A DNA stretch of 64,000 nucleotides from Candidatus Aenigmatarchaeota archaeon (lineage in GTDB: Archaea > Aenigmatarchaeota > Aenigmatarchaeia > PWEA01): positions 55,437 to 119,436 of the forward strand of contig JBKHHD010000001.1 of the NCBI GenBank assembly GCA_046539325.1. Reading direction: 5' to 3'. Both the position numbers and the translations under genes were made by a program. Each line of letters starts with the position of its first letter. Within the stretch, counting starts at the first letter, position 1. The notes under the pieces are model-generated. The model made no database searches. It was not told where the DNA came from and saw only the letters and a list, made by a program, of their open reading frames with translations. Below, piece by piece: positions 15,878 to 51,046 of this stretch.

Positions 15878-15928
15878 GCTGACATATTTATTAATCTCAA
15901 CAACGAATTATTCTAAGGGTGTTTGGAT

Positions 15929-16780
15929 ATTATAATACGAAACTCAGCCGCTGCTGGACAGTTCTATCCCAGAAGTTCGAGGGATATAGAATCAATGATA
16001 GACAAGTTTTCAAGGAGAGCAGACGTTGAGAAAAGAGACGTATTAGGCGGCGTGGTTCCACATGCAGGTTACATGTACTGTGGAGAAACACAGGCACACG
16101 TTTACGAATCAATCCTCGATGATACAAGCACTTTTGTTATACTCGGACCCAACCACTCAAGCCAGGGAACTTCGGAAGCGATAATGACGAGCGGGATGTG
16201 GAAGACACCTCTTGGTGGTGCAAGGATAGACACTGACCTTGCTAACTCAATACTGCAAAACTCCGACTATCTCGAGGACGACTATACAGCCCACAACCAG
16301 GAGCACTCAATAGAGGTTCAGCTTCCCTGGCTACAAAAAAAGTTCAGAGACTTCAACTTCGTTCCAATATCTATGAGCAAACATGATCTTAAGAGAGGGC
16401 AAGATATAGGAAAGGCCCTGAGGAAAGCTAGAGAAGAAACTTCAGAGAAGTTTGTAGTACTTGCTTCCTCTGACTTTACACATTTTGGAACTTCTTATGG
16501 ATACAAGCCTGTGACGGGTGGCATAGGGAAAAAGCTTGACTACATAAAGAAGATAGACACAGAAGCAGCTTCTGCCGTAGAAAAGCTTTCACCGGAAACG
16601 TTCGTCGACACAGTCGAAAGGTACAACGCTACCATATGTGGTGTTGGACCAATTGTATCCATGCTTTATTATTTAGAAGATATTGCGAAGGGGGGCGATC
16701 TCCTCGACTATTCGACTTCGTACGAGGTATCGAAGAACGAGGACTCTATGGTAGGATACTGCGGAATAGTACTGGAGTGA
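15929..16780 (+). CDS. MEMO1 / AmmeMemoRadiSam protein B family
   Basis: AAGQFYP, VPHAGY, GPNH, EHSIEVQLP, SSDFTH, TICG. Start uncertain (TTG 15923 or ATT 15929). Confidence 0.88.
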   Translation: MIIRNSAAAGQFYPRSSRDIESMIDKFSRRADVEKRDVLGGVVPHAGYMYCGETQAHVYESILDDTSTFVILGPNHSSQGTSEAIMTSGMWKTPLGGARIDTDLANSILQNSDYLEDDYTAHNQEHSIEVQLPWLQKKFRDFNFVPISMSKHDLKRGQDIGKALRKAREETSEKFVVLASSDFTHFGTSYGYKPVTGGIGKKLDYIKKIDTEAASAVEKLSPETFVDTVERYNATICGVGPIVSMLYYLEDIAKGGDLLDYSTSYEVSKNEDSMVGYCGIVLE

Positions 16781-24415: not shown

Positions 24416-24427
24416 ATCGATCACCTC

Positions 24428-24452
24428 GCCCAGATCAGTTTCATCTCCGGGC
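24428..24452 (-). promoter_or_regulatory. Hairpin enclosing box C/D motifs directly 5' of the rps6e SD
   Basis: GCCCGGA-GATGA-AA-CTGA-TCTGGGC: 7-bp stem around GATGA/CTGA, followed by GAGGTGA. Confidence 0.5.
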
Positions 24453-24503
24453 ATTCATGAAAGAAATAGCAAGCTATTTAAAGATTACGGCTTGTGAAGC
24501 CCT

Positions 24504-24650
24504 TTACAATAGTTTCTTATCCTCGTATCTATTTTCTTCAGTTAAATCCTCCTTTTTATGTTCCTTGCTGCCACCAACAAAAGAAAGGACTTCAGAATCC
24601 ATTCCATTTTGAAGATATACTTCATGTCTACCTGGTTTTGAATCAGCCAT
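24504..24650 (-). CDS. Possible 48-aa acidic microprotein
   Basis: MADSKPGRHEVYLQNG...EENIDEDKKLL; TATA-like TATTTAAG upstream; co-oriented between aIF5B and S6e. Confidence 0.35.
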   Translation of the reverse strand: MADSKPGRHEVYLQNGMDSEVLSFVGGSKEHKKEDLTEENRYEDKKLL

Positions 24651-24693
24651 GTTATCACTGTATAATTACAACTCATTACTTAAATAGTTTTCC

Positions 24694-26427
24694 CTAACCG
24701 TACTTCTCATCGATAACTTCCTCCAGAACTTTCTTCTCACCTTTCGAGAGCATATCCTCAAGCTCCTCAAGCTTCCTTATATCTCTGTCTGAAAGAAGGT
24801 TGTAAAGTACGTCACCTTCCTCGACCTGTCTTCCAACCGTTACCTTGCTTATAGAGACAGCTACCCTGTCCCCGCCTTCAGCCATCTCTACAGGAACGTT
24901 TTCGTCCTGTATCTCTCTTATAGTTCCTACTCTCTTACCTTCCTTCACGAGATCGTAACCAGGCTTTATAACACCATCTATGACATCACATCCAACCACC
25001 GCAGGCTTCCTTTGCCTGAAGACGTAGCCAGGAAGCAAACGAATCTTTCCTGGACGTGTCACCTCTTCCAGCTTTTCCCTTCTTATCTCCTCCTGCTTCT
25101 TTTCCTTCCATTCCTCATACTCCTCGACCAACCTGTAGACGACTGAACTGGAAAATATCTTTACGTCCTCTTCACACATCTCAGCAGCCTCGGTAACGCC
25201 TACGTTGAAGGCAAATATTCCTCTCTGAAGAGGATCTTTGACGGAGCTAGCTTCCATAACGTCTTTACGCGTGACGTCACCTATTGACGCTTTCGTTATA
25301 GGAATTTCCTTCTCCTCGAGCATGTTTATGATTCCTTCAAGGCTGCCCAACGTATCAGCCTTTACTACAATACCTTCGCCTTCGGACTCCATCTCGATGT
25401 CCTCAACCTCTTCCTTCAGTTCCCCAAGAGCTTTGTCCGTATCGCCCTCAGGTCCAAGACTCTGAAGAGGTGAGCCAGCCACAACCTTGTCAAGACCAGG
25501 TCCGGATATCTTTACACCGGAAGCAGCCTTTACCTCCTCGACGTTCTTGAACTTCTTCTCCGTCCTGAGCTCCTCGAGCTCCCTTGGTTTGAGAAGAGCC
25601 TTAATCTTTGAGACAACAGGATTTTCGCCGCCAATGGCAAGCTGGTCACCTTTTCTCATAACACCTTCGTACAGTATTACGTCCAGGGTGGTTCCCAGGC
25701 CTTTAGACTCCTTGACCTCCAAAACTGTTCCCTTACCAACATCTGACGTAAGTTCCAGTTCATCTGAGAGGTATTTCTGAGAAAGTCCTATAAGGACCGC
25801 TAGGAGATCCGGAACCCCTTCGCCGGTAAGCCCAGAAACAGGAACTATAGCAACCTTGTCTCTGAAATCATCGACCCTGTCAAACCTGTCCGCAGTGACG
25901 TTCATCTCGGAGAGGTCACCCATAAGCTCGTATACCTTTTCGTCGAGTTTGTTTCTCACCTTCTCCCTTTGTTTCTTATATGTATTAGAAAAACAGGCTC
26001 CTTCAACAGAGTTCCAACCACGTATCTTGTCCGTTTTAGTAGCAGCGACGACAAAGGGCGTATTAAACTCCTTCAAGAACTTTAGAGACTCCTTTGTCTG
26101 CGGCTTAAAGCCTTCGTTGACGTCTACCACTAGAACAGCAAGATCGGAGACGGACCCGCCTCTCTTTCTGAGAGTAGTAAAGGCCTCGTGGCCTGGGGTA
26201 TCTATAAACAGAAGGCCAGGCACTTTAATGTCCTCCGTCGTCAGAAGACCGCCGCACAAGCTCTTTACAACGTCAAGGGTTATCTCAGTAGCACCTATAT
26301 GCTGTGTTATTCCTCCCGCCTCACCTGAAGCTACCTTCGTTTCTCTTATACGGTCGAGTATAGTCGTCTTTCCGTGATCCACGTGGCCTAGTACCGATAT
26401 TATCGGCTGCCTTCTTTTTTCCGACAT
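24694..26427 (-). CDS. infB: Translation initiation factor aIF5B (IF-2)
   Basis: RQPIISVLGHVDHGKT, GITQHIGA, DTPGHEAF, KADTLGSLE; no intein. Confidence 0.97.
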   Translation of the reverse strand: MSEKRRQPIISVLGHVDHGKTTILDRIRETKVASGEAGGITQHIGATEITLDVVKSLCGGLLTTEDIKVPGLLFIDTPGHEAFTTLRKRGGSVSDLAVLVVDVNEGFKPQTKESLKFLKEFNTPFVVAATKTDKIRGWNSVEGACFSNTYKKQREKVRNKLDEKVYELMGDLSEMNVTADRFDRVDDFRDKVAIVPVSGLTGEGVPDLLAVLIGLSQKYLSDELELTSDVGKGTVLEVKESKGLGTTLDVILYEGVMRKGDQLAIGGENPVVSKIKALLKPRELEELRTEKKFKNVEEVKAASGVKISGPGLDKVVAGSPLQSLGPEGDTDKALGELKEEVEDIEMESEGEGIVVKADTLGSLEGIINMLEEKEIPITKASIGDVTRKDVMEASSVKDPLQRGIFAFNVGVTEAAEMCEEDVKIFSSSVVYRLVEEYEEWKEKKQEEIRREKLEEVTRPGKIRLLPGYVFRQRKPAVVGCDVIDGVIKPGYDLVKEGKRVGTIREIQDENVPVEMAEGGDRVAVSISKVTVGRQVEEGDVLYNLLSDRDIRKLEELEDMLSKGEKKVLEEVIDEKYG

Positions 26428-26718
26428 TTCCGACACCTTTTGCATATATAGTGCTAGCGGGAGTCATTCCTACACTATAATTCCGCCGAAGATATTTAAA
26501 ATAGTTAGGAGGGCTCAGATATGAGGCCAAGGAAAGCTCCACTCGTAAGCCATCTGTTAATGAAAGGCCACGGTATAGATATATTTATCTCGTCAAAAAA
26601 CGAGGATACATTTATAAAATCGTCGAACAATGCTTTAGCCAAGGATTGGTGAGGAACTTTTAAAGAAATTAAAAACTTTTAAATTGTGCAGAACAATATT
26701 AGCTGGAGGCAGTTAACA

Positions 26719-27255
26719 ATGAAACAGATAAGGATACATGGACGTGGCGGCCAGGGCTCTGTTACTATGGCTTCCATGATGGCAGAAGCAGCTTTTGAAT
26801 CAGGTAAAGAAGCCCAAGGATTTCCATCCTTCGGTGTAGAAAGATTGGGCGCACCCATAGAAGCCTACGTCCGAATAGACAACAAAGAAATAACGGACAG
26901 AAGCCAGATCTACAATCCTGACTTCGTGATAGTCCAGGACTCCACGCTCATAGAGCTCGTGGAAGTTGAAAAGGGTCTAAAAGATGATGGAATGATACTT
27001 ATAAATACTTCAGAGGACGCCGAAAACATAGATCTGGACACAGAAGCAGAAATCGTAACAGTGGACGCCACAGAAATAGCACTCGAGCACCTTGGAAAGC
27101 CGATTATGAATACTGCACTTGCTGGAGCCTTTGCAAAGGCGACAGGCTTGATAGAAGAGGAAAGTATGGCAAAGGTTATAAGGGAAACTTTCGAAGGAGA
27201 GATAGGTCAAAAGAACGTCAAAGCTATGGAAGAAGCTTACGGGGTTGTACAATGA
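26719..27255 (+). CDS. porG: Pyruvate/2-ketoacid:ferredoxin oxidoreductase gamma subunit
   Basis: IRIHGRGGQG, FPSFGVERLGAP. Confidence 0.92.
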   Translation: MKQIRIHGRGGQGSVTMASMMAEAAFESGKEAQGFPSFGVERLGAPIEAYVRIDNKEITDRSQIYNPDFVIVQDSTLIELVEVEKGLKDDGMILINTSEDAENIDLDTEAEIVTVDATEIALEHLGKPIMNTALAGAFAKATGLIEEESMAKVIRETFEGEIGQKNVKAMEEAYGVVQ

Positions 27256-27536
27256 CAAAGGATCCATACGAAGATCTGGAGATAAAGACTGGCGCGGCAA
27301 CGGAGCCCAGGGGCACACTTGTAAATAAAACAGGAAGCTGGAGGTCTCAAAGGCCTGTAATAGACCATGAGAAATGTGTGGCATGCGGGAACTGTGAGAA
27401 GTTCTGTCCTGATATGGCAGCAAAGGAAACGGAAGAAGGCAGGTTTGAAATTGACCTGGACTTCTGTAAGGGCTGTGGAATATGTGCCGAAGAATGTCCT
27501 GTAAACGCTATTGAAATGGAGAGGGAGGAGAAATAA
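27252..27536 (+). CDS. porD: Pyruvate/2-ketoacid:ferredoxin oxidoreductase delta subunit
   Basis: KTGSWR..RP; two CxxCxxCxxxCP motifs. Confidence 0.92.
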   Translation: MTKDPYEDLEIKTGAATEPRGTLVNKTGSWRSQRPVIDHEKCVACGNCEKFCPDMAAKETEEGRFEIDLDFCKGCGICAEECPVNAIEMEREEK

Positions 27537-27537
27537 T

Positions 27538-28755
27538 ATGGCAGAAATGATGACAGGATACGACGCTGTTGCAGAGGCCGTGAAGGCCTGTAACCCAGAC
27601 GTTATACCTGCATATCCTATAACGCCACAAACGGATATCGTAGAAAAAATAAGCGAAATGGTCGCAGACGGCGAGCTTACAAGCGAATACGTGAGAGTGG
27701 ACAGTGAGTTCAACGCTGCTTCCACCGCACTAGGTGCGAGCGCTGCAGGAGCAAGAGTTTTCACCGCGACCTGCTCACAGGGACTTAAGCTTATGAGCGA
27801 GCCTATCTTTAGCGCCTCAGGGATGAGGTTGCCTCTTGTTCTCGCTGTAGCCAACAGAAGTCTCTCAGCACCTCTAAGCATATGGGGAGACCATACTGAT
27901 ACATTTGCAGAAAGGGATGGTGGAATGATTCAGTTTTACGCAGAAGATGTACAGGAAGCCATGGACAACATAGCGATGGCCTACCGCGTCGCAGAGGACA
28001 AGGATATTTCACTGCCTGCTCTTTCATGCCTGGATGGATTTATACTAACGCACGTGCAGGAGAAGGTCGAACCATTTACTGAGGAGGAATTAAAGGAGTT
28101 CCTTCCTGAAAGGGACCCGGTCCATACCTTAGACCCTTCGGATCCGACGACGATGGGGGCCTATGCAAGACCTGAGCACTGGACCGAGACGAGGTACGAA
28201 GTACATGAAACTGTGAAAAGATCCAAAGACAAGATCGGCGAAGCTGTAAAGGAGTTCGCAAACATATTCGGAAGAGAGTACGGCCTAGAGCACAACGGAC
28301 TTCTGGAGACGTACAGAACGGAGGATGCAGACGTTATATTAGTCGCTCTGGGAAGCGTCTGTGGAACTATGAGATATATCGTGGACGAGTACAGGGACAA
28401 GGGCCAAAAGGTCGGTATGGTAAGGCCAAGAGTTTACAGGCCTTTCCCTGTTGAAGAGATAAGCAAGGCCCTAGAGGAAGCTGAAGCTATAGCAGTCTTA
28501 GAGAAGGACGTTTCGCTCGGCTATCAGGGTGGTCTAGCAATAGATATAAAGTCCGCTCTCTACTCCAACGGAAGCAAGATACCAATACTCAACTTCATCG
28601 TAGGATTGGCTGGAAGGGACGTGACAAAGGACAACCTCAGGAACATTGTAGAGCAAACGAAGGAACTACGTGGCAAGGGCCCTGAGGACATCAGTGAGGA
28701 GGAAAGGTGGGAACCTTTGAGGACTGAAATTTTATCAGGTGATAAGAATGACTGA
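27538..28755 (+). CDS. porA: Pyruvate/2-ketoacid:ferredoxin oxidoreductase alpha subunit
   Basis: AYPITPQT, TATCSQGL, NRSLSAP. Confidence 0.92.
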   Translation: MAEMMTGYDAVAEAVKACNPDVIPAYPITPQTDIVEKISEMVADGELTSEYVRVDSEFNAASTALGASAAGARVFTATCSQGLKLMSEPIFSASGMRLPLVLAVANRSLSAPLSIWGDHTDTFAERDGGMIQFYAEDVQEAMDNIAMAYRVAEDKDISLPALSCLDGFILTHVQEKVEPFTEEELKEFLPERDPVHTLDPSDPTTMGAYARPEHWTETRYEVHETVKRSKDKIGEAVKEFANIFGREYGLEHNGLLETYRTEDADVILVALGSVCGTMRYIVDEYRDKGQKVGMVRPRVYRPFPVEEISKALEEAEAIAVLEKDVSLGYQGGLAIDIKSALYSNGSKIPILNFIVGLAGRDVTKDNLRNIVEQTKELRGKGPEDISEEERWEPLRTEILSGDKND

Positions 28756-29674
28756 AGACAAGTTCAAACACGAAGAAGACCTGTTCTGCTCCGGGCATAG
28801 AGCATGTCCAGGTTGTGGAGCCGCGCTTACCTCAAAGCTTGTAACAGAAGCAACAGGTTCCCAGACTATACTCTCGATGCCTACCGGATGTATGGAAGTT
28901 ACGACAACACCTTACCCGGAAAGCGCCTGGGGAATAAGCTGGATGCACAATATATTTGAGAACTCCGCCGCAATTGCAGGGGGAATAGAAACCGCTTACA
29001 AGGCCTTTGACAAAAGGAACAAGGAAGGTTACATGGATCACGACGACGTGAACTTTGTAGTTCTAGCCGGTGATGGAGCCACATTTGATATAGGTATAAG
29101 GAGCTTAAGCGGAATGATGGAAAGGGGTCACGACGTTCTCTACATATGCTACGACAACGAAGCTTACATGAATACAGGGATTCAGAGGAGCAGTAGTACA
29201 CCGATCGGTGCAGCCACGACAACGAGTCCAGCAGGAAAGGAAAGCCATGGTGAAAACATTCATAAGAAGGATATGCCTAGTATAGCTGCTGCCCATGGAC
29301 TTGAGTACGTAGCTACAGCCAGTATCGCTTACCCCGAGGACTTCCAAAAGAAGGTGAAGAAGGCTCTGGAAATAGAAGGTCCGAAGTATATTCAGGTCTT
29401 CTCTCCTTGCCCACGTGGCTGGAGACATGATGCAAAGAACAGTGTAAAGATAGCAAGGCTTGCGGTGGAAACAGGAATGTACCCGATCTACGAAATGGAG
29501 AACGGACAGATAACCAACGTCAAGAAGATCAAGGATCGGAAACCTGTCGAGGAATATTTGAAGACACAAGGCAGATTCAAGCATCTCTTTGAGCAGGAAG
29601 GTGGGGAAGAAGTAATTGAGGAGCTTCAGCAAATTGCTGACGCAAACGCTGAAGAGCTAGGGATCGATAAGTAA
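28748..29674 (+). CDS. porB: Pyruvate/2-ketoacid:ferredoxin oxidoreductase beta subunit
   Basis: GHRACPGCG, TPP motif GDG...DNEAYMNTGIQRS, SPCP. Confidence 0.92.
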   Translation: MTEDKFKHEEDLFCSGHRACPGCGAALTSKLVTEATGSQTILSMPTGCMEVTTTPYPESAWGISWMHNIFENSAAIAGGIETAYKAFDKRNKEGYMDHDDVNFVVLAGDGATFDIGIRSLSGMMERGHDVLYICYDNEAYMNTGIQRSSSTPIGAATTTSPAGKESHGENIHKKDMPSIAAAHGLEYVATASIAYPEDFQKKVKKALEIEGPKYIQVFSPCPRGWRHDAKNSVKIARLAVETGMYPIYEMENGQITNVKKIKDRKPVEEYLKTQGRFKHLFEQEGGEEVIEELQQIADANAEELGIDK

Positions 29675-30592
29675 TCACTCTAATATTTCTATATCGTCTG
29701 TTTTTCCATCTCCGTCCCTATCCAAACCCTTTATAACCCTGCAAAACTCCTCTCCTCGTTGATAATCATCGAAAACTCTATCGGACCGATGTATTGCTCC
29801 GAGGATACACGTCTTTGTTCCTTCGAAGTGAAGCCCAGAAAGCAGTATTCTCTGATAGCCGTTGTTTTCTATCTTTGCTACAAGGCCCAGATTCTCATCG
29901 GAATACGTATTTCCGGTTTTATCCGAAACTATCTTCCAGGTCTTTTCCCAGTCGAAGCGAACGCTCAACTCCTCGTTTAGCTCCCTTGAAACAGTGTTTG
30001 TTATAGGACCCCCTATCAGTATTAGGTTTCTATCCAAGGCTTCCTCTGCTTTAACTTCGGTGTCCAGTTTCACTACAAATCTCTCTTCCAGGTTGCAAAA
30101 TCCACCTAAAAAAATTCCAAGCTGAACCGCATAATGTCCGTCTCGGGAAGCAGTCATAAAGGGACCGTGCTCCTTTGGTGAGCCAACAACTATCGAACCA
30201 CTGAAGCTTTCACCGGAAACAAACTCAGAAAAGAAGTCCAGGGCTCCTTCAGGAACATCAGGCTTTCTTCCTCTGCTTTCCCTCCAGTTGTCGTTTATCT
30301 CAAATCCGACAGAATCCGTAGTAGGACGGTAGAACTTGCAGAGAGCACCACCCCTTCTCTCCTCCTTTGCAACTTCAACAAGACCGGCTTCCTTTAACTT
30401 TTCGATATGATAGTAAACCTTCTGTTCATGGACACCTAAATCCTCTGCAATCTTTTTGGGATAAGTCCCCTTTTCGTCTATTGACCTAAGGATTTCAAGT
30501 GTTTTTTCACTTACAGCTCCTGCATTGTTAGAATCCAAGAGCCTGATGTCCTTTGAATAAAAGTTGCCGTTATCTTCTCTGGTAATCTTCAT
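29675..30592 (-). CDS. ArsR-like HTH regulator with large C-terminal domain
   Basis: YPKKIAEDLGVHEQKVYYHIEKLKEAGLV wHTH; C-terminal NLILIGGPITN. Confidence 0.75.
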   Translation of the reverse strand: MKITREDNGNFYSKDIRLLDSNNAGAVSEKTLEILRSIDEKGTYPKKIAEDLGVHEQKVYYHIEKLKEAGLVEVAKEERRGGALCKFYRPTTDSVGFEINDNWRESRGRKPDVPEGALDFFSEFVSGESFSGSIVVGSPKEHGPFMTASRDGHYAVQLGIFLGGFCNLEERFVVKLDTEVKAEEALDRNLILIGGPITNTVSRELNEELSVRFDWEKTWKIVSDKTGNTYSDENLGLVAKIENNGYQRILLSGLHFEGTKTCILGAIHRSDRVFDDYQRGEEFCRVIKGLDRDGDGKTDDIEILE

Positions 30593-30692
30593 AGATATAA
30601 ACTGTGGTTCTTATTATAAATATTTTTACAATGAGAAGGATTCTATTTTAATTATTTTTATATAATTCTAAGACCAAAATAATGCAGGTAAC

Positions 30693-31412
30693 ATGGATGC
30701 TCTTGTACTTGCTGCGGGTAAAGGAACGAGGCTACGTCCTTTAACAGATCAGAAGCCTAAGGTTCTTGTCGAGGTCAAGGGAAAGTCTCTGATAGAGCAC
30801 ATCATCGATGATCTCAAAGAGATTGGAGCAAAACAGATTACAGTCGTAAAGGGTTATATGGGTGAAATGCTGGAGGAAAGGCTTGATAAGTACGAAAACA
30901 TTGATTTCATACAACAGGAAAAGCAGCTCGGGACAGCACATGCCATAGGACTATCATCGTTCAGCTCTCCTTTCCTAACAGTAAACGGAGACGTCTTCAT
31001 GCATAGGAGGAATCTCAGGAATCTTGTCTCCGCCTTCGGAGAAGATACGGAAGCTGTCATTGGAAGTATGAGGGTAGAAAATCCTGAGGAGTTCGGCGTT
31101 CTCGAGGTTAAAGGAAGGGAGGTCAAGGATATAATCGAGAAGCCTGACGAACCCCCTTCCGATATAATAAACACCGGAACATACGTCTTCTCGCCGGAGA
31201 TATACAAATACATAAAAAGAACAGAGGTTTCTGAAAGAGGAGAATACGAGATAACCGATTCCCTTCGGATGATGCTAAAGGATGGAAAACCAGTGAGCCA
31301 TGCCAAATTCAGTGATTACTGGATAGATGTGGGAAGGCATGAGGATTTGGCGAGAGCAAAAAACATAGAGACAAAGGACAAAACAAAGAGGTCGGTAGTA
31401 TCTGTGGGATAA
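30693..31412 (+). CDS. Sugar-phosphate nucleotidyltransferase (GlmU N-domain-like)
   Basis: LAAGKGTRLRPLT..KPK, QLGTAHA, EKP, SERGEYEITD. Confidence 0.9.
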   Translation: MDALVLAAGKGTRLRPLTDQKPKVLVEVKGKSLIEHIIDDLKEIGAKQITVVKGYMGEMLEERLDKYENIDFIQQEKQLGTAHAIGLSSFSSPFLTVNGDVFMHRRNLRNLVSAFGEDTEAVIGSMRVENPEEFGVLEVKGREVKDIIEKPDEPPSDIINTGTYVFSPEIYKYIKRTEVSERGEYEITDSLRMMLKDGKPVSHAKFSDYWIDVGRHEDLARAKNIETKDKTKRSVVSVG

Positions 31413-33133
31413 CAGGGTACTGCGGACAAGGTAAGACTCCAGAAGTACTGCTCGATTGTTTGGAAAGGTTGGAGTACAGGGGATACGACTCTGCAGGCCT
31501 TGCATTTCTCAATGATTCAGGCATACAGGTAAGCAAGGCAACAGGAACCCTTGATGAACTTGATTTTGATTCAGAGGATATAGATGGAGAAATAAATACA
31601 GGCATCGGCCATACAAGATGGGCCACACATGGAGATGTTTCAAAAGAAAACGCCCATCCACACAGCTCTTGCAAAGGAAGGTTTGTATTAGCACACAACG
31701 GGATAATAGAGAACTGGAAAGAGCTGAAGGAACAGCTTAACAACCACACCTTTGAATCAGAAACCGACTCCGAGGCTGCTGTCCATTACATAGAGGAGAA
31801 AGCAGATAAATTTACAACGGAAAGGGCTATTCAGGATTTTATGGAAGAGGTAGAAGGCAGCTACGCTATAACCCTCCTTGATTCGAAACAAGAAAAGTTA
31901 TACGTTATGAAAAGCGGCTCACCCATTGTGATAGGTATCAACGAAGAAGAAGTTTTTGTCGCATCCGACGTCTACGCTTTTTCACCGTACACAGACAAAG
32001 TAATGTTTCTCAAGGACGAGGAATATGCGGTTGTAGAGGAGGGAAATGTTACAGTAAAGGACAAGGAAGGCAAGGAAGTTGAAAGGGGCCTCAAAACTGT
32101 ACAATGGGAACAGGAAAGTTCCGAAAAGGAGGGTTTCGAACACTATATGCACAAGGAGATAAAGGAAATTCCAAATGCCCTGAAAAAACTACAGAACTCC
32201 TTGGATACGACACAAAATGAGAGGCTTAAGAAGTTCGCTGAAAAAATAAAGGATCATGGAAAGGTTGTCTTCGCCGCCTCAGGGACCAGCTACCATGCTT
32301 CTCTACTGGGTGTCTATTTTCTTCAGAAAGCAGGTGTAGAAGCACGGGCATTTTTAGCCTCGGAGCTCGGGAACTATGACAGGGTTGACGACGATACTCT
32401 TCTCATTCCGGTATCACAGTCCGGTGAGACAAAGGACGTGCTTGAAGCAATGAAATACGCAAGAAACAAAGGAGCGGAAATAGCCTCTATAACAAACGTG
32501 CCCCATTCCACGGTCGAGAGGAAGTCAGATATAAACCTTAGGATAAAGTCTGGGCAAGAGGTCTGTGTTGCCGCTACGAAAACATTTACAAACCAGGTCT
32601 ACGCGCTAATGAGGATAGCTGAAGAGATGGACGGACTGAGCTTTGAAAGAAACATAGAAAGTTCTCTTAGAGAGGTCATCGAAAGAAATGAAGAACCAAT
32701 AAAGGAGCTCGCAGAGGAACTTAAGGAAGAGGAAGACATATACATCATCGGCAAGGGTGAGAGCTTTCCTGTCGCGAGGGAGATATCGCTGAAACTAAAG
32801 GAAATAGCCTACATACACGCCGAAGGAATGTTGGCAGGTGGATTGAAACATGGAACTTTAGCGCTTATCGAGGAAGGAACTCCCGTTATTTCTCTAATAC
32901 CAGAAAAGGATTCGGACATGATTTCAAACGTCAAGGAGGCAGAATCACGGGAAGCAAGGACGATAAGGATATCACCCCACTACGGCGACTTCTACCTACC
33001 TGAGACAGAAAACGGCGATTTCTCCTTTTTCGCGGCAGCAATAGGTTTCTTGCTTACATACTGGATAGCCAGGGAGAAAGGACTGCCTATAGACAAGCCG
33101 AGGAACCTCGCTAAATCAGTCACAGTCCAGTAG
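31400..33133 (+). CDS. glmS: Glutamine--fructose-6-phosphate aminotransferase
   Basis: Frame extends upstream of the track start to (ATC)-CGITG...LEYRGYDSAG; GHTRWATHG, HNGIIEN, SQSGET, PRNLAKSVTV. Confidence 0.93.
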   Translation: MCGITGYCGQGKTPEVLLDCLERLEYRGYDSAGLAFLNDSGIQVSKATGTLDELDFDSEDIDGEINTGIGHTRWATHGDVSKENAHPHSSCKGRFVLAHNGIIENWKELKEQLNNHTFESETDSEAAVHYIEEKADKFTTERAIQDFMEEVEGSYAITLLDSKQEKLYVMKSGSPIVIGINEEEVFVASDVYAFSPYTDKVMFLKDEEYAVVEEGNVTVKDKEGKEVERGLKTVQWEQESSEKEGFEHYMHKEIKEIPNALKKLQNSLDTTQNERLKKFAEKIKDHGKVVFAASGTSYHASLLGVYFLQKAGVEARAFLASELGNYDRVDDDTLLIPVSQSGETKDVLEAMKYARNKGAEIASITNVPHSTVERKSDINLRIKSGQEVCVAATKTFTNQVYALMRIAEEMDGLSFERNIESSLREVIERNEEPIKELAEELKEEEDIYIIGKGESFPVAREISLKLKEIAYIHAEGMLAGGLKHGTLALIEEGTPVISLIPEKDSDMISNVKEAESREARTIRISPHYGDFYLPETENGDFSFFAAAIGFLLTYWIAREKGLPIDKPRNLAKSVTVQ

Positions 33134-33171
33134 TTTCCAAGCTTTTAAAGATTCTGTACAAAAGTAGGAAT

Positions 33172-33450
33172 ATGTCAGACAAAGAAAAGTTAGGATATCA
33201 TAAAGGCGCCATGGAAGCTCTGATCAATGAGAAGATAGAGCTCTCACGTCTCCTGAAGATAGTCAACTCACTGATCCAAAGACACTCCAAGTCTCTCGAG
33301 GAGATGGGCGTCGATGTCGAAAAGTTCATAGAAAACGTTCAAAAGAAAAGGGAAAAAAGCGCAAGAAAGGCGACCGAGAAAAGCAAGAGATCCTCACAGG
33401 ACAAAGGAGAGTTTGATCTGTCGGACGAAGAACTTCCTGAAGAGTTCTAG
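33172..33450 (+). CDS. Hypothetical helical protein
   Basis: 92-aa ORF; YHKGAMEALINEKIELSRL. Confidence 0.7.
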   Translation: MSDKEKLGYHKGAMEALINEKIELSRLLKIVNSLIQRHSKSLEEMGVDVEKFIENVQKKREKSARKATEKSKRSSQDKGEFDLSDEELPEEF

Positions 33451-33458
33451 GTGGAAAA

Positions 33459-33854
33459 ATCACAACAGTAATACTTGATGCCAACTTCGTCATGGCTCCT
33501 GGCGAGGTTGGTGTGGACGTCTTTGAAGAGATAGGCGGGATGTTGAACGGAAATTACAATCTTGTGATGCCCGAACCGGTGAAAAATGAAGTCCGGAAGC
33601 TTTCAAGGGGAAGGGGTGAAGAGGCAAAGGCCGCAAGAATAGCTCTTGAGCTTGTCGAGAGGCAAGGTGTTGAGATCGTAGAAACAAGTAGAAAAGACGG
33701 GGACGCTTCAATAGTCGAAGCTGCAAGGAAATTTGAAAAGCCTGTTATAGCAACCAACGACAAGAATCTGAGGAACCAGTTCAGACAGAGGTCAATTCCA
33801 ACAGTTTACGTAAGAACAGGAGACCACGTTGAGATGGAAGGTGATATAAGATGA
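33459..33854 (+). CDS. PIN-domain protein (Fcf1/Utp24-like)
   Basis: First strand VILDANFVM lies upstream of the track ATG; also V..E, GDASI, IATND..LR; usual position before rpoE. Confidence 0.88.
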   Translation: MTTVILDANFVMAPGEVGVDVFEEIGGMLNGNYNLVMPEPVKNEVRKLSRGRGEEAKAARIALELVERQGVEIVETSRKDGDASIVEAARKFEKPVIATNDKNLRNQFRQRSIPTVYVRTGDHVEMEGDIR

Positions 33855-34339
33855 CAAAGAAGGCAGTAAACTTCATTGTAAAAGCAAGAGAAGGTAGCAG
33901 ATGTAAGTATAATTATTCGGATGGTAAGCTTGAACTAGAAAGCATGTTGCCAAAGGGCGCACAGTATCCTGAAAACTACGGCGCAGTCTCTCAAACCCTA
34001 GACGATGCAAGAAAGAAGCTTGATGGGTTCCTAATAACTAACGAATCAATTGAACCAGGTACCTCAGTAAAGGTCAGGCCCGTCGCCTGCATAAGGACAG
34101 AGGAGGAAGGAGTGAAGAACGATAAAGTAGTAGTTGTACCGGAAATTGATCCGGATAAAGATAATATAAAGGACCTTGAGGACCTGGACAGAAAGCTTCT
34201 AATTGAGCTTAAGGCCTTCGTAAACGAACTATGTCAAGCCGAAGGCAAGGATGTCGAGATAAAGGATACTTTTGGTAGTAGAGATGCAAGAAGATTGATA
34301 AAACACTGCAAAAAGATATATAAAAGAAGAAAGGAGTAA
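33851..34339 (+). CDS. Family I inorganic pyrophosphatase homolog with degenerate active site
   Basis: GSRCKY, YPENYG..SQTL, PGTSVKVRPV, DKVVVVP; DxDPxD motif not intact. Confidence 0.75.
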   Translation: MTKKAVNFIVKAREGSRCKYNYSDGKLELESMLPKGAQYPENYGAVSQTLDDARKKLDGFLITNESIEPGTSVKVRPVACIRTEEEGVKNDKVVVVPEIDPDKDNIKDLEDLDRKLLIELKAFVNELCQAEGKDVEIKDTFGSRDARRLIKHCKKIYKRRKE

Positions 34340-34369
34340 GTATGTGTCAACCATTTGAGGAGATTGATA

Positions 34370-34921
34370 ATGTACAAGATACTAGAGGTTAAAGACACAA
34401 TAAGAGTCGATCCAGAAAAGTTCAGTATGGAGCTTGAGGACTCCGTTTACGAATCCCTGAGAGAAAAGTATGAAGGACTATTGAGGCCTGAAATAGGCTT
34501 CATACTATCCGTTGAAGAAGTAACGGATATAGGTGAAGGAAAGATTCTTCCTGAAGACGGTGCAGCCCACTATCCTGCAGAGTTCAAGATGCTTGTCTTC
34601 GAACCACAGGAACACGAGGTAGTCATAGGGGAAGTTGTTGATGTGACGGAGTTTGGTGGTTTTGTAAGGATAGGGCCAATAGACGCTCTCATACACGTCT
34701 CCCAGGTTATGGACGACTACGTCAACTACGACGAAAAGAACAATTCTCTGGAAGGCAAGGAGACAGGAAAGCGTCTGAAGAACGGTGATCTTGTAAGATC
34801 AAGGATAATCTCAGTATCTTACTCCGAGGACAACAAAGTGGGCCTTACGATGAAACAGCCAAGGCTTGGTGCTCTGAAATGGTTAGAAGAAGGCGAAGAA
34901 AATGAAGAAGAGGAAGAATAA
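34370..34921 (+). CDS. rpoE1: RNA polymerase subunit E' (Rpo7)
   Basis: GKILPEDGAAH, FGGFVRIGPIDALIHVSQVMDD, GLTMKQPRLG. Confidence 0.96.
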   Translation: MYKILEVKDTIRVDPEKFSMELEDSVYESLREKYEGLLRPEIGFILSVEEVTDIGEGKILPEDGAAHYPAEFKMLVFEPQEHEVVIGEVVDVTEFGGFVRIGPIDALIHVSQVMDDYVNYDEKNNSLEGKETGKRLKNGDLVRSRIISVSYSEDNKVGLTMKQPRLGALKWLEEGEENEEEEE

Positions 34922-34956
34922 ATTTAAATTTTAGGACGAAAAGATTCGTGATTAGT

Positions 34957-35145
34957 ATGGCAAAAAGAGAAAAAGCTTGTAAGGAATGCAGAAGGCTCAT
35001 CCAGGGCAGCGAATGTCCTGCATGCAAGACCTCGGATCTTACAAAAAACTGGGAAGGAATGGCTATAATTATAGATCCTGAATCAGAGCTTGCCCAAACA
35101 ATAGGTATAGAAACACCTGGAAAATACGCAATTAAGATGAGGTGA
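34957..35145 (+). CDS. spt4: Transcription elongation factor Spt4 (RpoE'')
   Basis: KACKECRR...CPAC...WEGMAIIIDPE..PGKYA. Confidence 0.95.
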   Translation: MAKREKACKECRRLIQGSECPACKTSDLTKNWEGMAIIIDPESELAQTIGIETPGKYAIKMR

Positions 35146-35149
35146 AAGG

Positions 35150-35584
35150 ATGAAGGTAGAAATAAAGGAAAGGAAAAAGAACCCTGTGCTAGACAGAAGA
35201 TTGATAGAAGGAACTGTAGAACACGCAGGTGAAGCTACTCCTTCCTCTGAAGCTCTAAAAGGATTCCTTGCAGAGGAACTAGACTCAGAAGAGGAAAGCA
35301 TCGAAATTAAAAAGATATTTACAATAAGAGGAATGCAAAAAAGCAAGTTCTGGGCAAGAGAACATGGAGATATTGAAGCTTCCGAAGAAGCAGAGAAAGG
35401 AGAAAAGAAGGAAGAATCCGGAGGCAAAAACTACGAAGAAGTATTAGGCGGAAGTATCTCAGATGCAAAAGATGAGATAGAGGAAATGGACGATCCAGAC
35501 TACGAGAAGTTGATGGAAGTTGAAAAGAACAATAAGGACAGAAAAGGTATGAAGAAATATCTGGAGAAGAACATAGGTGAATAA
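35150..35584 (+). CDS. rps24e: Ribosomal protein S24e with extra C-terminal domain
   Basis: [13 protein letters not shown] core; between spt4 and S27ae; extra YEEVLGGSI...NKDRKGM domain. Confidence 0.9.
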
Positions 35585-35585
35585 G

Positions 35586-35759
35586 ATGCCTAAACACAAG
35601 AAGGTAAGTGTATGGGAAAAGTACGATGTAGACGGTGAAGAAGTAGAGAGAAAGGGTAAGACCTGTCCCAGGTGTGGCGACGGAGTTTTCATGGCTGACC
35701 ACGAAGACAGGCTCACATGTGGAAGATGTGGATTTTCTCAGATGAAGGAAGAAGAGTAA
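35586..35759 (+). CDS. rps27ae: Ribosomal protein S27ae
   Basis: [23 protein letters not shown]. Confidence 0.96.
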
Positions 35760-35814
35760 AAGGCGTTTATCTGTATTTCTATCCTGAACTCAAGCAAGCT
35801 TTGAGAACTGCTTA

Positions 35815-37773
35815 CTAGACCAAAAGAGGCACGAATATAAGAGCTGTCATTGCAACCAGCTTTATGAGGACATTCAGAGAGGGGCCTGAAGTATCTTTCA
35901 TTGGATCACCGATAGTATCCCCTACAACTGCTGCAGAGTGGGCATCAGAACCCTTACCCCCGTAGTTACCGTTTTCTATATGTTTCTTAGCGTTGTCCCA
36001 AGCTCCGCCTGCATTGGCCATTGTTACAGCAAGGAGGAATCCCGTTGAAATATTCCCAGCAAGCATTCCTGCGAGGGCCTCAGGACCCAGAAGAAGTCCA
36101 ACAACTATAGGCGAAAGTATAGCTATTACTCCAGGAAGAACCATCTCCTTGAGGGCTGAATCCGTTGAAATAGCTATACATGACGAGTAGTCAGGCTTCT
36201 CATCACCTGAAAGAATATTCATATCTTCGAACTGCCTTCTTATCTCATCTATCATCTTGCTTGCGCTTTTGCCCACTGATCTCATCGTAAGAGCTGAGAA
36301 AATAAAGGGTAGTAGAGCGCCAATGAACAGACCACCAACTATCATAGGCTGAGTAAGTGCTACGTCGGCTGCCTTCAGACCAACGTTCTGCGTGTAGGTA
36401 ACGAAAAGCGTAAGTGAAGCAAGGGCTGCGGAGCCTATGGCAAATCCCTTACCTATTGCTGCTGTGGTGTTACCTATCGAATCAAGAGCTTCGGCCCTCT
36501 CCCTCACGTCCTGGCCCATCTCTGCCATCTCAGCTATTCCAGCAGCGTTGTCAGCTACAGGTCCGTAACAGTCCGTTGCAAGCGTTATGCCTAGCGTTGA
36601 TAACATTCCTATAGACGCTATACCGATACCGTAGAGTCCTGCGAAATAATATGAAATTAACATGGCAGCAGATACCGTAAGCATAGGAACAAGGGTTGAA
36701 ATCATTCCTGTGGAAAAGCCAGCTATTATGTTTGTAGCGGCGCCACCTATCGATTCCTTTGCAATATTTCTCGTTGGTTTGTGTTTGCTGGCGGTGTAGT
36801 ACTCAGTCATAAGGCCTATAATTACACCGGCCAGAAGCCCTGAAACTATAGAGTAAAATACGCCAATCACTATTTCAGGGAAGAGATGCTGCATCCCGAA
36901 ATACATGAAGACAGGGGCAAGAATGGCTGCTCCGAAGGTTCCTCTGTTCAGGGCCCAGTGTAGGTTCTCCTCTCCACCAACGAAGAAGTATCCAATCATG
37001 GATGCTATTATTCCAGCTGCGCCTATGAAAAGGGGAAATACTACAGCGCCTGCAGCCTCCATGGTTATAGCTCCTATCGCCATCGTGGCCACGATCGCCT
37101 CGACGTATGACTCGAAAAGGTCCGCGCCCATTGCCGCTACGTCACCTACGTTGTCCCCGACGTTGTCCGCGACTACGCCCGGATTCCTTGGATCGTCCTC
37201 AGGGATATCCTCCTCCACCTTTCCCACAAGATCCGCTCCCATATCCGCAGTTTTCGTGTAAATTCCACCTCCGACGCGCGCGAACAGCGCTACTGAAGAA
37301 GCTCCGAATGCAAAGCCGAAAAGTATCTCGGGGTCAGGAAAGACGTAGTAGAAAACTGCTATACCCAAAAGACCGAAGCCTACGACAGACATTCCCATAA
37401 CGGTTCCTGAGGAAAAAGCAATTCCCAATCCTTTCCCGAGGCTATCCTTCACTGCTTCTGATGTCCTGGAGTTGGAGCTTGTGGCTGTAGACATTCCTAT
37501 AACTCCTGCAAGCGAGCTGAGGAAAGCTCCGAAGACGAAGGTAAGGGCAGTCTGTGGGTTTATAAAGTAGAAAAGGACAGAAGCTATCACAACAACAACC
37601 ACGGACAGGTACTTGAACTCCTGTGTAAGAAACGTCCTCGCTCCTTCCTTTATGTGATCCGACATCTCCCTTGCCTTTTCAGGTCCCCGGTCCTTCTTCT
37701 TTATCCTCCAGGTCAAAATTACTGCGAAAATTAATGCTATGATAGAAGCAGTTACTGCTATCGTTACGTGCAT
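35815..37773 (-). CDS. hppA: Membrane ion-translocating pyrophosphatase, K+-dependent type
   Basis: GGGIYTKTADMGADLVGKVE, DNVGDNVGD, GNTTAA, GGAWDNAKK, GDPMKDTSGP; start at ATG 37773. Confidence 0.95.
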   Translation of the reverse strand: MHVTIAVTASIIALIFAVILTWRIKKKDRGPEKAREMSDHIKEGARTFLTQEFKYLSVVVVVIASVLFYFINPQTALTFVFGAFLSSLAGVIGMSTATSSNSRTSEAVKDSLGKGLGIAFSSGTVMGMSVVGFGLLGIAVFYYVFPDPEILFGFAFGASSVALFARVGGGIYTKTADMGADLVGKVEEDIPEDDPRNPGVVADNVGDNVGDVAAMGADLFESYVEAIVATMAIGAITMEAAGAVVFPLFIGAAGIIASMIGYFFVGGEENLHWALNRGTFGAAILAPVFMYFGMQHLFPEIVIGVFYSIVSGLLAGVIIGLMTEYYTASKHKPTRNIAKESIGGAATNIIAGFSTGMISTLVPMLTVSAAMLISYYFAGLYGIGIASIGMLSTLGITLATDCYGPVADNAAGIAEMAEMGQDVRERAEALDSIGNTTAAIGKGFAIGSAALASLTLFVTYTQNVGLKAADVALTQPMIVGGLFIGALLPFIFSALTMRSVGKSASKMIDEIRRQFEDMNILSGDEKPDYSSCIAISTDSALKEMVLPGVIAILSPIVVGLLLGPEALAGMLAGNISTGFLLAVTMANAGGAWDNAKKHIENGNYGGKGSDAHSAAVVGDTIGDPMKDTSGPSLNVLIKLVAMTALIFVPLLV

Positions 37774-37856
37774 AACCTGAACTAGTTTTCCGTTGTTTTT
37801 AAAATTTCTAACGAAACCACAAAGATATTTAAATTTTAGTATTAAATAGTAACAAT

Positions 37857-38765
37857 ATGTCAGAAAATGAACAACCTGAGGCTTCAAAGGAGGTATACGA
37901 AAAACTCCCCTGGGACAAAATAATGAGTGAAAGAAATGAAAATGAAGAAGGTCTGGAATCATTAGCACAAGGCTCATATAAATGGGATCAGGAAGTAGAC
38001 AAACTTGCTTCAGAAAAGAAACCGGACAATGGTGATTATGAGGCACAGAATGGAACATCTTCTTCAACTGATTCAACTGAACAAAAGACTGTCGAAGTAA
38101 TATATTCATTGCAGCCTGAGATAAAGGACACAGCAGATAAACTTGGTTTAAAATACAACAACGAGATGGACCTATTCTTGAGATGGGGCGAAAAAAGCTA
38201 CGATGGGCAACTTTTAAGAAATGTTGCAAAAAAGGTCTACGGAAAAGAAAGGGGGGCATACAACTCATGGGACGAGATGGATAAAGCCGAAAAACATTCA
38301 GAGGTTATATCCCTGGGATTTAAGATGACAGATCCCGAATTTGAAGAAATTGCGGAATGTAGCAGTCTTACCGAAGCCTCAGAATTAATAGCCGAAGAAA
38401 TCGAAAACAAGTACGAGGACAGTTACACGTCACAAACCATACAGAAAATACTCAGAGAAGAAGCGCCAGAAATACACAGAGATCTAATGGATCCTTCCTT
38501 CAAGAGGAAAATAAAAAATAAGGTAGACAAAGAGTTTTTGAAGGCCGTGGACCCGGCCACAAAATCACTGGAACCTCTTGTTAGAGAGAGTGAAGAACAA
38601 TTTGCAGGAAGGTCCTATAACATGAATACAACCGAGGCCAGAAGCCGAAAGAAAGAAAGAAAGGAGATAGAAGAAGAAAACAAAGTACCAATTAACAAAG
38701 AAGTAGCTGCAACTGCTGCTAAAACAGAAGATGGATCAGAATACCTGGAAAGTATTAGTTCTTGA
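37857..38765 (+). CDS. Hypothetical acidic protein
   Basis: 302-aa ORF divergent from hppA with TATA-like sequence upstream; no motif recognised. Confidence 0.7.
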   Translation: MSENEQPEASKEVYEKLPWDKIMSERNENEEGLESLAQGSYKWDQEVDKLASEKKPDNGDYEAQNGTSSSTDSTEQKTVEVIYSLQPEIKDTADKLGLKYNNEMDLFLRWGEKSYDGQLLRNVAKKVYGKERGAYNSWDEMDKAEKHSEVISLGFKMTDPEFEEIAECSSLTEASELIAEEIENKYEDSYTSQTIQKILREEAPEIHRDLMDPSFKRKIKNKVDKEFLKAVDPATKSLEPLVRESEEQFAGRSYNMNTTEARSRKKERKEIEEENKVPINKEVAATAAKTEDGSEYLESISS

Positions 38766-51041: not shown

Positions 51042-51046
51042 AGAAA

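Follow-up and report, generated by a model that had tools for sequence, protein, structure and literature searches.

The start codons AUU, AUC, AUA, and CUG are individually rare in bacteria. For archaea, passages of two published accounts state the start codons as AUG, GUG, and UUG (PMC7531240, PMC4705826), and the second of these includes the observation that S. solfataricus aIF1 discriminates against AUU in vitro (PMC4705826). Genes for initiation factors form a special case: a section of the same account describes both IF3 and eIF1 as autoregulated via weak starts (PMC4705826), and parts of two accounts describe eIF1 as restricting its own production by way of a weak initiation site (PMC4705826, PMC6237735). 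Our literature search found no published description of a near-cognate aIF1 start, or of infC-like feedback on aIF1, in archaea.

The DNA analyzed here, referred to throughout as the window, is a 64,000-nucleotide (nt) stretch from a Candidatus Aenigmatarchaeota archaeon. The organism is a tiny salt-lake archaeon, and its genus is hypersaline. The region in which glmS begins contains the following features.

30693-31412, plus strand: NTP_transferase gene, 5' of glmS, with its stop codon TAA at 31410-31412, 8 nt past the ATC
31388-31392, plus strand: GAGGT, Shine-Dalgarno (SD)-like, 5' of glmS
31400-31402, plus strand: ATC, proposed start codon of glmS, adjoined at 31403 by TGT (Cys)
31400-33133, plus strand: glmS coding sequence, 577 codons plus TAG (33131-33133), listed as an open reading frame with an ATC start
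31460-31462, plus strand: TTG, first canonical in-frame codon of glmS, 19 codons past the Cys and the start of the public 557-amino-acid (aa) form

The initial annotation had placed the start of glmS at the ATC at 31400, directly before CGITG at 31403 and behind GAGGT, with no canonical codon as far back as the TGA at 31340; rereading of the sequence bore out each of these elements. The codons following the ATC are TGT-GGG-ATA-ACA (CGIT), and there is no in-frame ATG, GTG, or TTG among all 20 codons between the TGA and the Cys at 31403 (GGA TTT GGC GAG AGC AAA AAA CAT AGA GAC AAA GGA CAA AAC AAA GAG GTC GGT AGT ATC). Read in the register of GGAGGTGATC, the tetramer GGTC has its last base at 31393, 6 nt ahead of the ATC, and the SD is only 5 nt long (GAGGT), with the consensus G replaced by C. 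Downstream, all 577 codons are free of stops and frameshifts. The NTP_transferase gene and the start of glmS overlap by 13 nt, and translational coupling across this overlap is possible.

Base 31402, which the initial annotation had singled out for verification, is a C in the Logan contigs of two sequencing runs, X1 and X2 (27,625 nt each, at depths of 63.7 and 72.6), and these contigs show no differences from the window over positions 24423 to 36500. Being contigs and not raw reads, they could miss minor variants, and the assembly itself may derive from the samples of X1 and X2. Two additional runs (X3 and X4) cover the start of the PIN-domain gene described below, which is unchanged there, and position 31400 lies outside their coverage. 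None of the sequencing runs holding the stretch is on record as RNA. The presence of ATC directly before the glmS Cys codon is confirmed.

In its domains, the encoded protein is an ordinary full-length GlmS, with Pfam matches to GATase_6 (4e-19) and GATase_7 (1.5e-14) and two stretches matching SIS (4e-40), such that the glutaminase is followed by two SIS domains. Its identity to relatives ranges from 37 to 67%, with residues 1 to 575 or 576 covered. The TGT at 31403 aligns with Cys1 of 28 relatives, so that Cys directly follows the initiator residue, as is characteristic of GlmS. The codon ahead of Cys1 in these relatives is ATG in 25, GTG in 2, and TTG in 1, and ATC occurs only in the genome of the window (G000), i.e., in 1 of 29 genomes, the relatives showing exchange with ATG. 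Because ATC is present in G000 alone of 29, conservation at glmS cannot tell whether the start is weak but functional or has just been lost. Neither a propeptide nor a frameshift fusion to the upstream gene was retained as an explanation, since relatives with the same arrangement of genes have their own ATG immediately ahead of the Cys. The pathway neighbors of glmS are retained, both the overlapping NTP_transferase gene and a PGM/PMM-family gene (47450-48796). This glmS is present in the public protein collection only as the 557-aa form, which begins at TTG 31460 and is without Cys1.

The initial annotation had further proposed that glmS belongs to a wider pattern, which would appear as an excess of ATT and ATC at homology-defined SD-led starts. 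Among 188 near-unambiguous starts in G000, GGTG lies mostly 5 to 7 nt ahead of the start codon (counts of 5, 11, and 15). Pairing G000 with G004, a whole genome of the same genus, yielded 14,301 aligned N-terminal columns, 220 of which have an SD in both genomes. These columns contain ATG/ATG 81 times, TTG/TTG 8 times, and GTG/GTG once, along with ATT/ATT 6 times, ATC/ATT 3 times, and ATC/ATC twice (expected, 0.67, 0.27, and 0.40); mixed codons occur in one ATG/ATT and one ATC/ATG column. The excess foreseen by the annotation is present: ATT or ATC occupies the site in both genomes in 11 columns, against an expectation of 1.3 based on the internal rate. ATA/ATA columns show no excess (4 versus 5.9 expected).

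Upon inspection, 8 of the 11 shared columns hold up; two (g501 and g713) are false, representing internal coding sequence, and one (g211) is ambiguous, with an ATG upstream in both genomes. Another candidate, g511, was dropped as internal coding sequence. Scanning single genomes for SD-led ATT gave 10 occurrences versus 2.1 expected in G000 and 8 versus 2.9 expected in G004, and the hierarchical design of the scan, together with the two-genome columns, avoids inflation by "ATT ATG" neighbors of true ATG starts. About 12 of the roughly 110 SD-led starts common to the two species are ATT or ATC (~11%), and ATT and ATC situated 5 to 7 nt past an SD are probably the start codons of about 1 in 9 SD-led genes of the genus.

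All 13 curated ATT/ATC genes have an SD match of 4 to 10 nt at the spacing seen in ATG genes. Mean SD length is 6.5 in ATT/ATC genes (n = 13) and 5.8 in ATG genes (n = 81), a difference that is not significant (one-sided P = 0.078), and a stronger SD was rejected as compensation for the weaker codon on these grounds. In 187 of the 575 G000-G004 gene pairs, the protein alignment runs more than 2 residues 5' of the first canonical start. Fifteen of these pairs were inspected, and 14 represent conserved promoter DNA with TATA-like boxes ~25 nt before the ATG, indicating that these genes are leaderless; the fifteenth is aIF1. Stop-codon reassignment or a massive use of noncanonical starts was discarded based on these 14 pairs.

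Several of the genes with apparent ATT or ATC starts lie within the window.

15917-16780, plus strand: Memo-family gene, with SD-like GGGTG at 15917-15921, ATT at 15929, and TGA at 16778-16780, 283 aa
24008-24427, minus strand: ribosomal protein S6e gene, with SD GAGGTGATC at 24427-24419, ATT at 24415-24413, and TAA at 24010-24008, 135 aa
33449-33461, plus strand: start of the PIN gene, with SD AGGTGG at 33449-33454, AAAA, and ATC at 33459; the stop codon (TAG) of the upstream gene is at 33448-33450
33459-33854, plus strand: PIN-domain gene, 131 aa from the ATC

The SD geometry that the initial annotation had recognized at the PIN (ATC), S6e (ATT), and Memo (ATT) genes is indeed common to all three, and their starts are ATT or ATC in 7 of 7, 7 of 8, and 7 of 7 genomes of the genus, respectively. 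The PIN gene starts with ATC in six genomes and ATT in one; its PIN_9 profile begins at residue 4 counted from the ATC, the first canonical ATG (33492) falls after the conserved Asp, and in G007 a stop lies 3 codons 5' of the start site with no canonical codon in between. All seven of the S6e starts are ATT, the aligned site being ATG in the sister genus and other lineages (G008 and others), and in G007 a stop lies 6 codons 5' of the start, again with no intervening canonical codon. The Memo gene has ATT in three genomes and ATC in four, with a frame-breaking indel just 5' of the start and, in G002, a stop 1 codon upstream and no canonical codon between.

Outside these three genes, an NYN gene and a thermosome subunit gene both start with ATT in 8 of 8 genus genomes. 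For NYN, three genomes have a stop 4 codons 5' with no canonical codon in between, and for the thermosome gene, G008 has ATG at equal SD spacing. A single aligned site in an ABC transporter gene is ATT in three genomes, ATG in three, and TTG in one, and exchanges between ATG and ATT/ATC, in both directions, separate G000 from G004 at g234, glmS, and g635. In the thermosome gene, most S6e genes, and g367, a GTG within the SD is in frame and could be an alternative start, though one without an SD of its own.

Inspection of aIF1 (Pfam SUI1), the start-codon fidelity factor, had also been called for in the initial annotation, and the gene itself starts at ATC. This codon is present in all 9 family genomes, and the start codons in 22 genomes of the order are ATC (17), ATT (1), and ATA (4), with caveats on 5 of the 22: in three genes the first Cys codon is immediately preceded by ATG, a clear SD is missing from one of the ATA cases, and one gene has a GTG beside the Cys. 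In eight genomes from other orders the start is ATG (4), GTG (2), or CTG (2), and among archaea as a whole, 61 of 80 loci show an ATG no more than 8 codons away from the first Cys. The gene is situated in a ribosomal-protein operon (L22-S3-L29-aIF1-Rpp29-S17-L14-L24). Public aIF1 forms of 93 and 60 to 63 aa are missing the zinc knuckle's first CxxC. With the caveats noted, the order possesses a fidelity-factor gene with a conserved suboptimal start. Within the protein, the genus shows no specific change at conserved positions, differing only by E17D and Q96K, and a change in aIF1 itself was rejected as the cause of ATT/ATC use.

The initial annotation had described AUC/AUU initiation as routine in the lineage, which is supported within one genus but not beyond it. 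In G021, which belongs to a different family of the same order, aIF1 was the sole convincing ATT/ATC start in the 400 kb (of 833 kb) surveyed; general use across the order was rejected, and genome-wide use of these codons looks genus specific. Since G021 has an ATC-initiated aIF1 without general ATT/ATC use, the aIF1 start alone does not explain the pattern in the genus. The associated claim that gene callers misannotate such genes applies to glmS, which is called as 557 aa from the TTG, but public 101-aa aIF1 forms begin with M, indicating that at least one pipeline calls ATC. Overall, the comparison of these genomes supports the interpretation offered in the annotation.

Two components of the initiation machinery are conventional. 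The initiator tRNA, another component marked for inspection, has standard features (anticodon CAU, A1:U72, and a GGG/CCC stem), and an altered initiator tRNA was accordingly rejected as a cause. The 3' end of the 16S rRNA, located with Rfam and a 10-nt pattern, is canonical (GGATCACCTCC). The 16S gene carries an insertion near its 3' end.

From these genomic comparisons, we think it likely that glmS is translated from the ATC at 31400, which would be positioned by the SD and read by the ordinary initiator as one case of a genus-wide habit, with the weak start of aIF1 acting in a self-limiting manner. Pairing of GAGGT 6 to 7 nt upstream would place the 30S initiation complex at the ATC, possibly helped by ribosomes ending at the overlapping NTP_transferase gene. 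The near-cognate AUC would be accepted with the ordinary initiator Met-tRNA (anticodon CAU), and removal of Met would then expose Cys1. The same habit would provide ATT/ATC starts to aIF1, S6e, the thermosome subunit, NYN, PIN, Memo, and the ABC transporter. In glmS, the ATC would be a recent change from ATG that is tolerated by such a system, probably at reduced output. Most likely, the ATC, ATT, or ATA start of aIF1 keeps the amount of this factor low or self-limiting within the ribosomal-protein operon, as AUU does in bacterial infC.

An explanation that overlaps with this one holds that the ATC is used mainly by termination-reinitiation, ribosomes sliding back 8 to 13 nt after terminating at the TAA at 31410-31412, in place of SD-driven recruitment of free 30S subunits. 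The overlap between the two genes fits such a process. Tight packing after a same-strand gene is seen for g234, for the PIN gene (preceding stop, 9 nt upstream), and for aIF1 as well (preceding stop at a distance of 11 nt from the ATC). But S6e, the thermosome gene, g628, g367, and NYN use ATT at distances of 79 to ~1,270 nt from the previous same-strand gene; coupling is therefore unnecessary for the overall pattern, and we view reinitiation as an unlikely main route to the glmS start.

A less probable explanation is that the change from ATG to ATC silenced glmS, leaving a very young pseudogene or only a trace of product, in which case the intact frame would signify recency only. Small symbiotic archaea often lose biosynthetic genes, the noncanonical codon is confined to 1 of 29 genomes, and the SD is weak. 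Against silencing, the genus uses ATT and ATC at equal geometry in the conserved and presumably essential S6e, thermosome, and aIF1 genes, orthologous starts within the genus alternate between ATG and ATT/ATC, the 577 codons contain no stop or frameshift, and the pathway neighbors, including the overlapping gene, have been kept. Together these render a silenced glmS improbable, though less so than the explanations that follow.

Translation from TTG 31460, the first canonical in-frame codon and the start of the form in the public collection, would yield a protein missing its first 20 residues. Cys1, the nucleophile of class-II amidotransferases, would be lost, and the residues removed (CGITGYCGQGKTPEVLLDCL) align with the N termini of relatives from residue 1. 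Moreover, the SD scan found no match ahead of the TTG, the sole SD match of glmS being that at the ATC, and this start is very improbable. Equally so is a dedicated decoder of ATT/ATC, such as an initiator-like tRNA with a GAU anticodon or an altered initiation factor. Nothing points to one directly; the 17 Rfam tRNA matches form an incomplete set in which tRNA-Ile was not found. The standard initiator tRNA, the absence of genus-specific changes at conserved positions of aIF1, and the alternation of ATG, TTG, and ATT at the one ABC transporter site, as expected with a single initiator, all weigh against it. Finally, an assembly or sequencing error at 31402 is extremely improbable: the codon is one base off that of 25 of 28 relatives and the verifying runs may be the samples assembled, but two separately assembled runs (depths of 64 and 73) give identical 27,625-nt contigs, and no fewer than 8 further ATT/ATC starts are conserved among genomes assembled independently.

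Translation of glmS and other genes of the genus from SD-placed ATT or ATC would have consequences for annotation and for the study of initiation. Gene callers limited to ATG, GTG, and TTG cut functional N termini in this lineage, producing a GlmS without Cys1 and an aIF1 without its first CxxC, and a PIN protein begun at the first ATG loses its first strand along with the conserved Asp. Metabolic reconstructions of such small genomes may score ATT/ATC-started genes as broken. A genus in which ATT and ATC are as frequent as TTG at SD-led starts would constitute a natural system for investigating start-codon stringency in machinery of the archaeal/eukaryotic type. The conserved near-cognate start of aIF1 makes an infC-like feedback in archaea testable with the existing Pyrococcus abyssi and Saccharolobus solfataricus in vitro systems.

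Compared to known GlmS, the gene in the window is alike in the Cys next to the start codon, the class-II glutaminase domain, and the two SIS stretches, and is unlike only in the start codon. The start codons of the genus resemble the rare AUU, AUC, AUA, and CUG starts of NCBI table 11 in being near-cognate, SD dependent, and presumably read as Met by the initiator; they differ in their frequency, ATT/ATC being at least as common as TTG (8 TTG/TTG columns) and more common than GTG (1 GTG/GTG column), and in a gene set that takes in S6e and the thermosome subunit.

By analogy, and tentatively, the initiation of aIF1 in Aenigmatarchaeota from near-cognate AUC, AUU, AUA, and, in some lineages, apparently CUG may represent an archaeal loop of the infC/eIF1 type, whose set point might have shifted in one hypersaline genus such that ~11% of SD-led genes start with AUU or AUC. 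If such a loop exists, all three domains would set start-codon stringency by one logic. Like bacterial infC, which encodes IF3 and is described in part of one account as beginning with AUU (PMC4705826), aIF1 is a fidelity-factor gene that begins with a near-cognate AUH behind an SD and that has kept its odd codon throughout a lineage (22 of 22 genomes of the order). Unlike infC, its codon is mostly AUC, the gene lies inside a ribosomal-protein operon, and the trait is restricted to a portion of a single phylum-level group, ATG being present at 61 of 80 archaeal aIF1 loci; the aIF1 fold is also unrelated to that of IF3, according to a passage of the same account (PMC4705826). With eIF1, which is autoregulated via an AUG in poor context, aIF1 shares homology (SUI1), but it is the codon itself, and not the context, that makes the aIF1 start weak, and the aIF1 mRNA is SD led instead of scanned.

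Across its start region on the + strand, the glmS gene of the window reads AAAGAGGTCGGTAGT and then ATC TGT GGG ATA ACA GGG TAC, and its product contains class-II glutaminase and SIS domains (Pfam).

31400, + strand: ATC, candidate glmS start codon, immediately followed by the Cys codon at 31403
31410-31412, + strand: TAA stop of the upstream NTP_transferase gene, overlapping the glmS start
31460, + strand: TTG, earliest canonical codon (ATG, GTG, or TTG) in the glmS frame
33131-33133, + strand: TAG stop of the 577-codon glmS open frame

The initial annotation was correct that ATC precedes the Cys codon and that the 20 in-frame codons from TGA 31340 to this Cys contain no ATG, GTG, or TTG. The Shine-Dalgarno (SD) tetramer, GGTC, lies 6 nt from the ATC, and the window sequence supports the reading that glmS starts at ATC 31400.

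The assembled C at 31402 is upheld at contig level in two sequencing runs, X1 and X2, each of which yielded one 27,625-nt Logan contig (depths of 63.7 and 72.6) spanning 24423-36500 with 0 differences from the window; these runs may be the source samples of the assembly of this genome, G000 (715 kb in 10 contigs, ~45% G+C, 91% complete), and contigs mask minor variants. A consensus error at such depth in two separate assemblies is unlikely. Low-depth pieces of the organism in two other runs, X3 and X4, cover the PIN start, which is unchanged, with the glmS start outside their coverage. Among 28 relatives with the glmS N terminus on a contig (one further locus, interrupted by a contig end, was left out), the Cys immediately follows ATG in 25, GTG in 2, and TTG in 1. 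The ATC is confined to G000, so the odd codon is young and conservation lends it no support. That it represents a fresh loss of the start codon rather than a working start is nonetheless a slim prospect. With glmS, g628, g367, and g631 counted, G000 has 12 credible ATT/ATC starts and one more that is ambiguous.

G000 was compared whole with G004, a 633-kb genome of the same genus, through 575 aligned open-frame pairs. Alignments reaching upstream of the first ATG were rejected as non-canonical starts, being conserved promoter DNA of leaderless genes: TATA-like boxes ~25 nt upstream of ATG show nucleotide-level conservation between the two genomes, so that protein alignments appear to extend past the start. 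Most G000 genes look leaderless (e.g., g600, g288, and g674). Aligned codon columns with an SD 5-mer at 4 to 8 nt in both genomes were counted, with expected values from the rate in 106,764 internal columns and codon pairs pooled regardless of order. The N-terminal zone comprised 14,301 columns, 220 with an SD in both genomes.

SD-led N-terminal codon columns, G000/G004 (observed; expected)
ATG/ATG: 81; 2.4
TTG/TTG: 8; 0.27
ATT/ATT: 6; 0.67
ATC/ATT: 3; 0.27
ATC/ATC: 2; 0.40
ATG/ATT: 1; 0.00
ATC/ATG: 1; 0.13
ATG/GTG: 3; 0.13
ATG/TTG: 3; 0.00
GTG/GTG: 1; 0.40
ATA/ATA: 4; 5.9
other/other: 91; 138

At these columns, ATT and ATC are enriched about eightfold over the internal rate, the excess expected from the initial annotation, and ATA and other codons show no enrichment. 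Inspection of the 11 columns with ATT/ATC in both genomes left 8 credible, 2 in internal coding sequence, and 1 ambiguous. Conserved SD-led starts include ~97 canonical codons, and the ATT/ATC share is about one in nine. Scanned singly for SD-led ATT, G000 has 10 against 2.1 expected and G004 has 8 against 2.9. Codons also exchange between the genomes: g234 has ATT in G000 and ATG in G004, and g635 shows the opposite pattern. G004 has SD-led ATT/ATC candidates of its own at L034 (-19056), L057 (+4144), L055 (-163), and L066 (+5630), two with a stop directly upstream.

The 16S gene of G000 ends 3' in GGATCACCTCC, and at 188 starts that follow an upstream stop by no more than two codons, GGTG lies mostly 5 to 7 nt ahead of the start codon. 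In the 16S gene (contig C2:54477 to ~56760), an ~800-nt insertion (~2937-3745 of locus L313), which may be an intron, separates AAGTCGTAA from CAAGGTAGCCGTAGGGG immediately ahead of the 3'-terminal helix; the anti-SD end is intact downstream.

All three companion cases proposed initially, PIN, S6e, and possibly Memo, hold across the genus.

24415-24413, - strand: S6e, SD-defined start ATT in 7/8 genus genomes
33459, + strand: PIN, ATC in 6/7 and ATT in 1/7
15929, + strand: Memo, ATT in 3/7 and ATC in 4/7, preceded by an indel that breaks the frame or by a stop one codon away
NYN protein: SD-defined start ATT in 8/8, with a stop 4 codons upstream in three
Thermosome subunit: ATT in 8/8 behind an SD of 8 to 10 nt
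ABC transporter: one aligned site with ATT in 3, ATG in 3, and TTG in 1

In G007, another genus member, a stop precedes the S6e start by 6 codons and the upstream frame differs; the aligned codon is ATG both in the sister genus and in relatives at greater distance. In PIN, the first ATG falls past a conserved Asp. The sister-genus thermosome has ATG at equal spacing, and a GTG within the thermosome SD reads in frame with the gene.

The conserved ATC gene at C2:78061 is aIF1/SUI1 (Pfam, 7e-21), the archaeal start-codon fidelity factor and eIF1 homologue.

C2:76561-79863 (locus L078): ribosomal-protein operon L22-S3-L29-aIF1-Rpp29 (RNase P p29)-S17-L14-L24

The L29 stop abuts the aIF1 SD. Scored at the SD-defined site, 2 to 3 codons ahead of the CPxCG motif's first Cys, aIF1 starts at ATC in 17, ATT in 1, and ATA in 4 of the 22 genomes of the order, although in three the Cys also immediately follows an ATG, one ATA lacks a clear SD, and another has GTG beside the Cys. 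In other orders of the class, the start is ATG in 4/8, GTG in 2/8, and CTG in 2/8. Among the best 80 of 592 archaeal loci, ATG lies within 8 codons of the Cys in 61 and GTG/TTG lies nearby in 14, several of which, in records titled Aenigmatarchaeota, have the GTG inside the SD and CTG after it; the 5 with no canonical codon nearby comprise four titled Aenigmatarchaeota and one "uncultured archaeon." At L111, L112, L120, L122, L124, L146, L103, and L104, from records titled Aenigmatarchaeota and class-level relatives, aIF1 apparently starts at CTG, 5 to 7 nt past AGGTGA/GGGTGA, and the sole in-frame canonical codon is the GTG within this motif. No telling substitution was seen in the aIF1 protein of the genus. 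The operon's L24 gene has a C2H2 match near its C terminus (L078 2808-3302), and L31e is fused to a C2H2 zinc finger (window 50409-51077, - strand).

Widely used gene finders generally recognize just ATG, GTG, and TTG as starts. The predicted misannotation is borne out for glmS, present in the public protein collection solely as a 557-aa form (100% identity, 97% coverage) that begins at TTG 31460 and lacks Cys1. For aIF1, at least one pipeline already accepts ATC; aIF1 relatives appear both at 101 aa with the N terminus MANCPDCG, an NCBI entry among them bearing the name "stress response translation initiation inhibitor YciH," and as truncated 93-aa and 60- to 63-aa forms. Elsewhere in the window, a 422-aa ORF (7092-8357, + strand) matches both the small- and the large-subunit families of DNA primase and so appears to be a fusion of the two. 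In an H+-pyrophosphatase ORF (35818-38304, - strand), the ~187 residues ahead of the H_PPase profile either extend the N terminus or are open frame lying before the true start. Sections of two reviews give archaeal starts as AUG, GUG, and UUG (PMC4705826, PMC7531240). Searches of full-text literature, a body largely without subscription journals, yielded no account of aIF1 starting at a near-cognate codon or of archaea often using AUU/AUC starts.

In G021, from another family of the order, the same scan over 400 kb (48%) gave 61 ATG, 15 GTG, and 11 TTG and no convincing ATT/ATC start other than the ATC of aIF1. In the sister genus, S6e, thermosome, and glmS all start at ATG, so general ATT/ATC use looks like a genus trait atop an older, order-wide odd aIF1 start.

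The initiator tRNA of G000, suggested for inspection, is ordinary, and one M24-family peptidase gene is present, a family that includes methionine aminopeptidase. G000 tRNAs gave 17 matches to Rfam RF00005 and, with ARAGORN, 11 without and 30 with introns, many carrying long ones; no tRNA-Ile was detected genome-wide. In the simplest reading, a well-placed SD would set AUU or AUC in the P site, where Met-tRNAi would initiate by mismatch, perhaps assisted in overlapping genes by ribosomes terminating close by. These comparisons extend the observation to a trait of the lineage, in which aIF1 plausibly forms a regulatory core. A weak codon within a heavily translated operon would keep aIF1 output low, and, because S. 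solfataricus aIF1 rejects AUU in vitro according to a section of PMC4705826, such a start would also render its synthesis self-limiting, much like the autoregulation of infC and eIF1 outlined in parts of PMC4705826 and PMC6237735.
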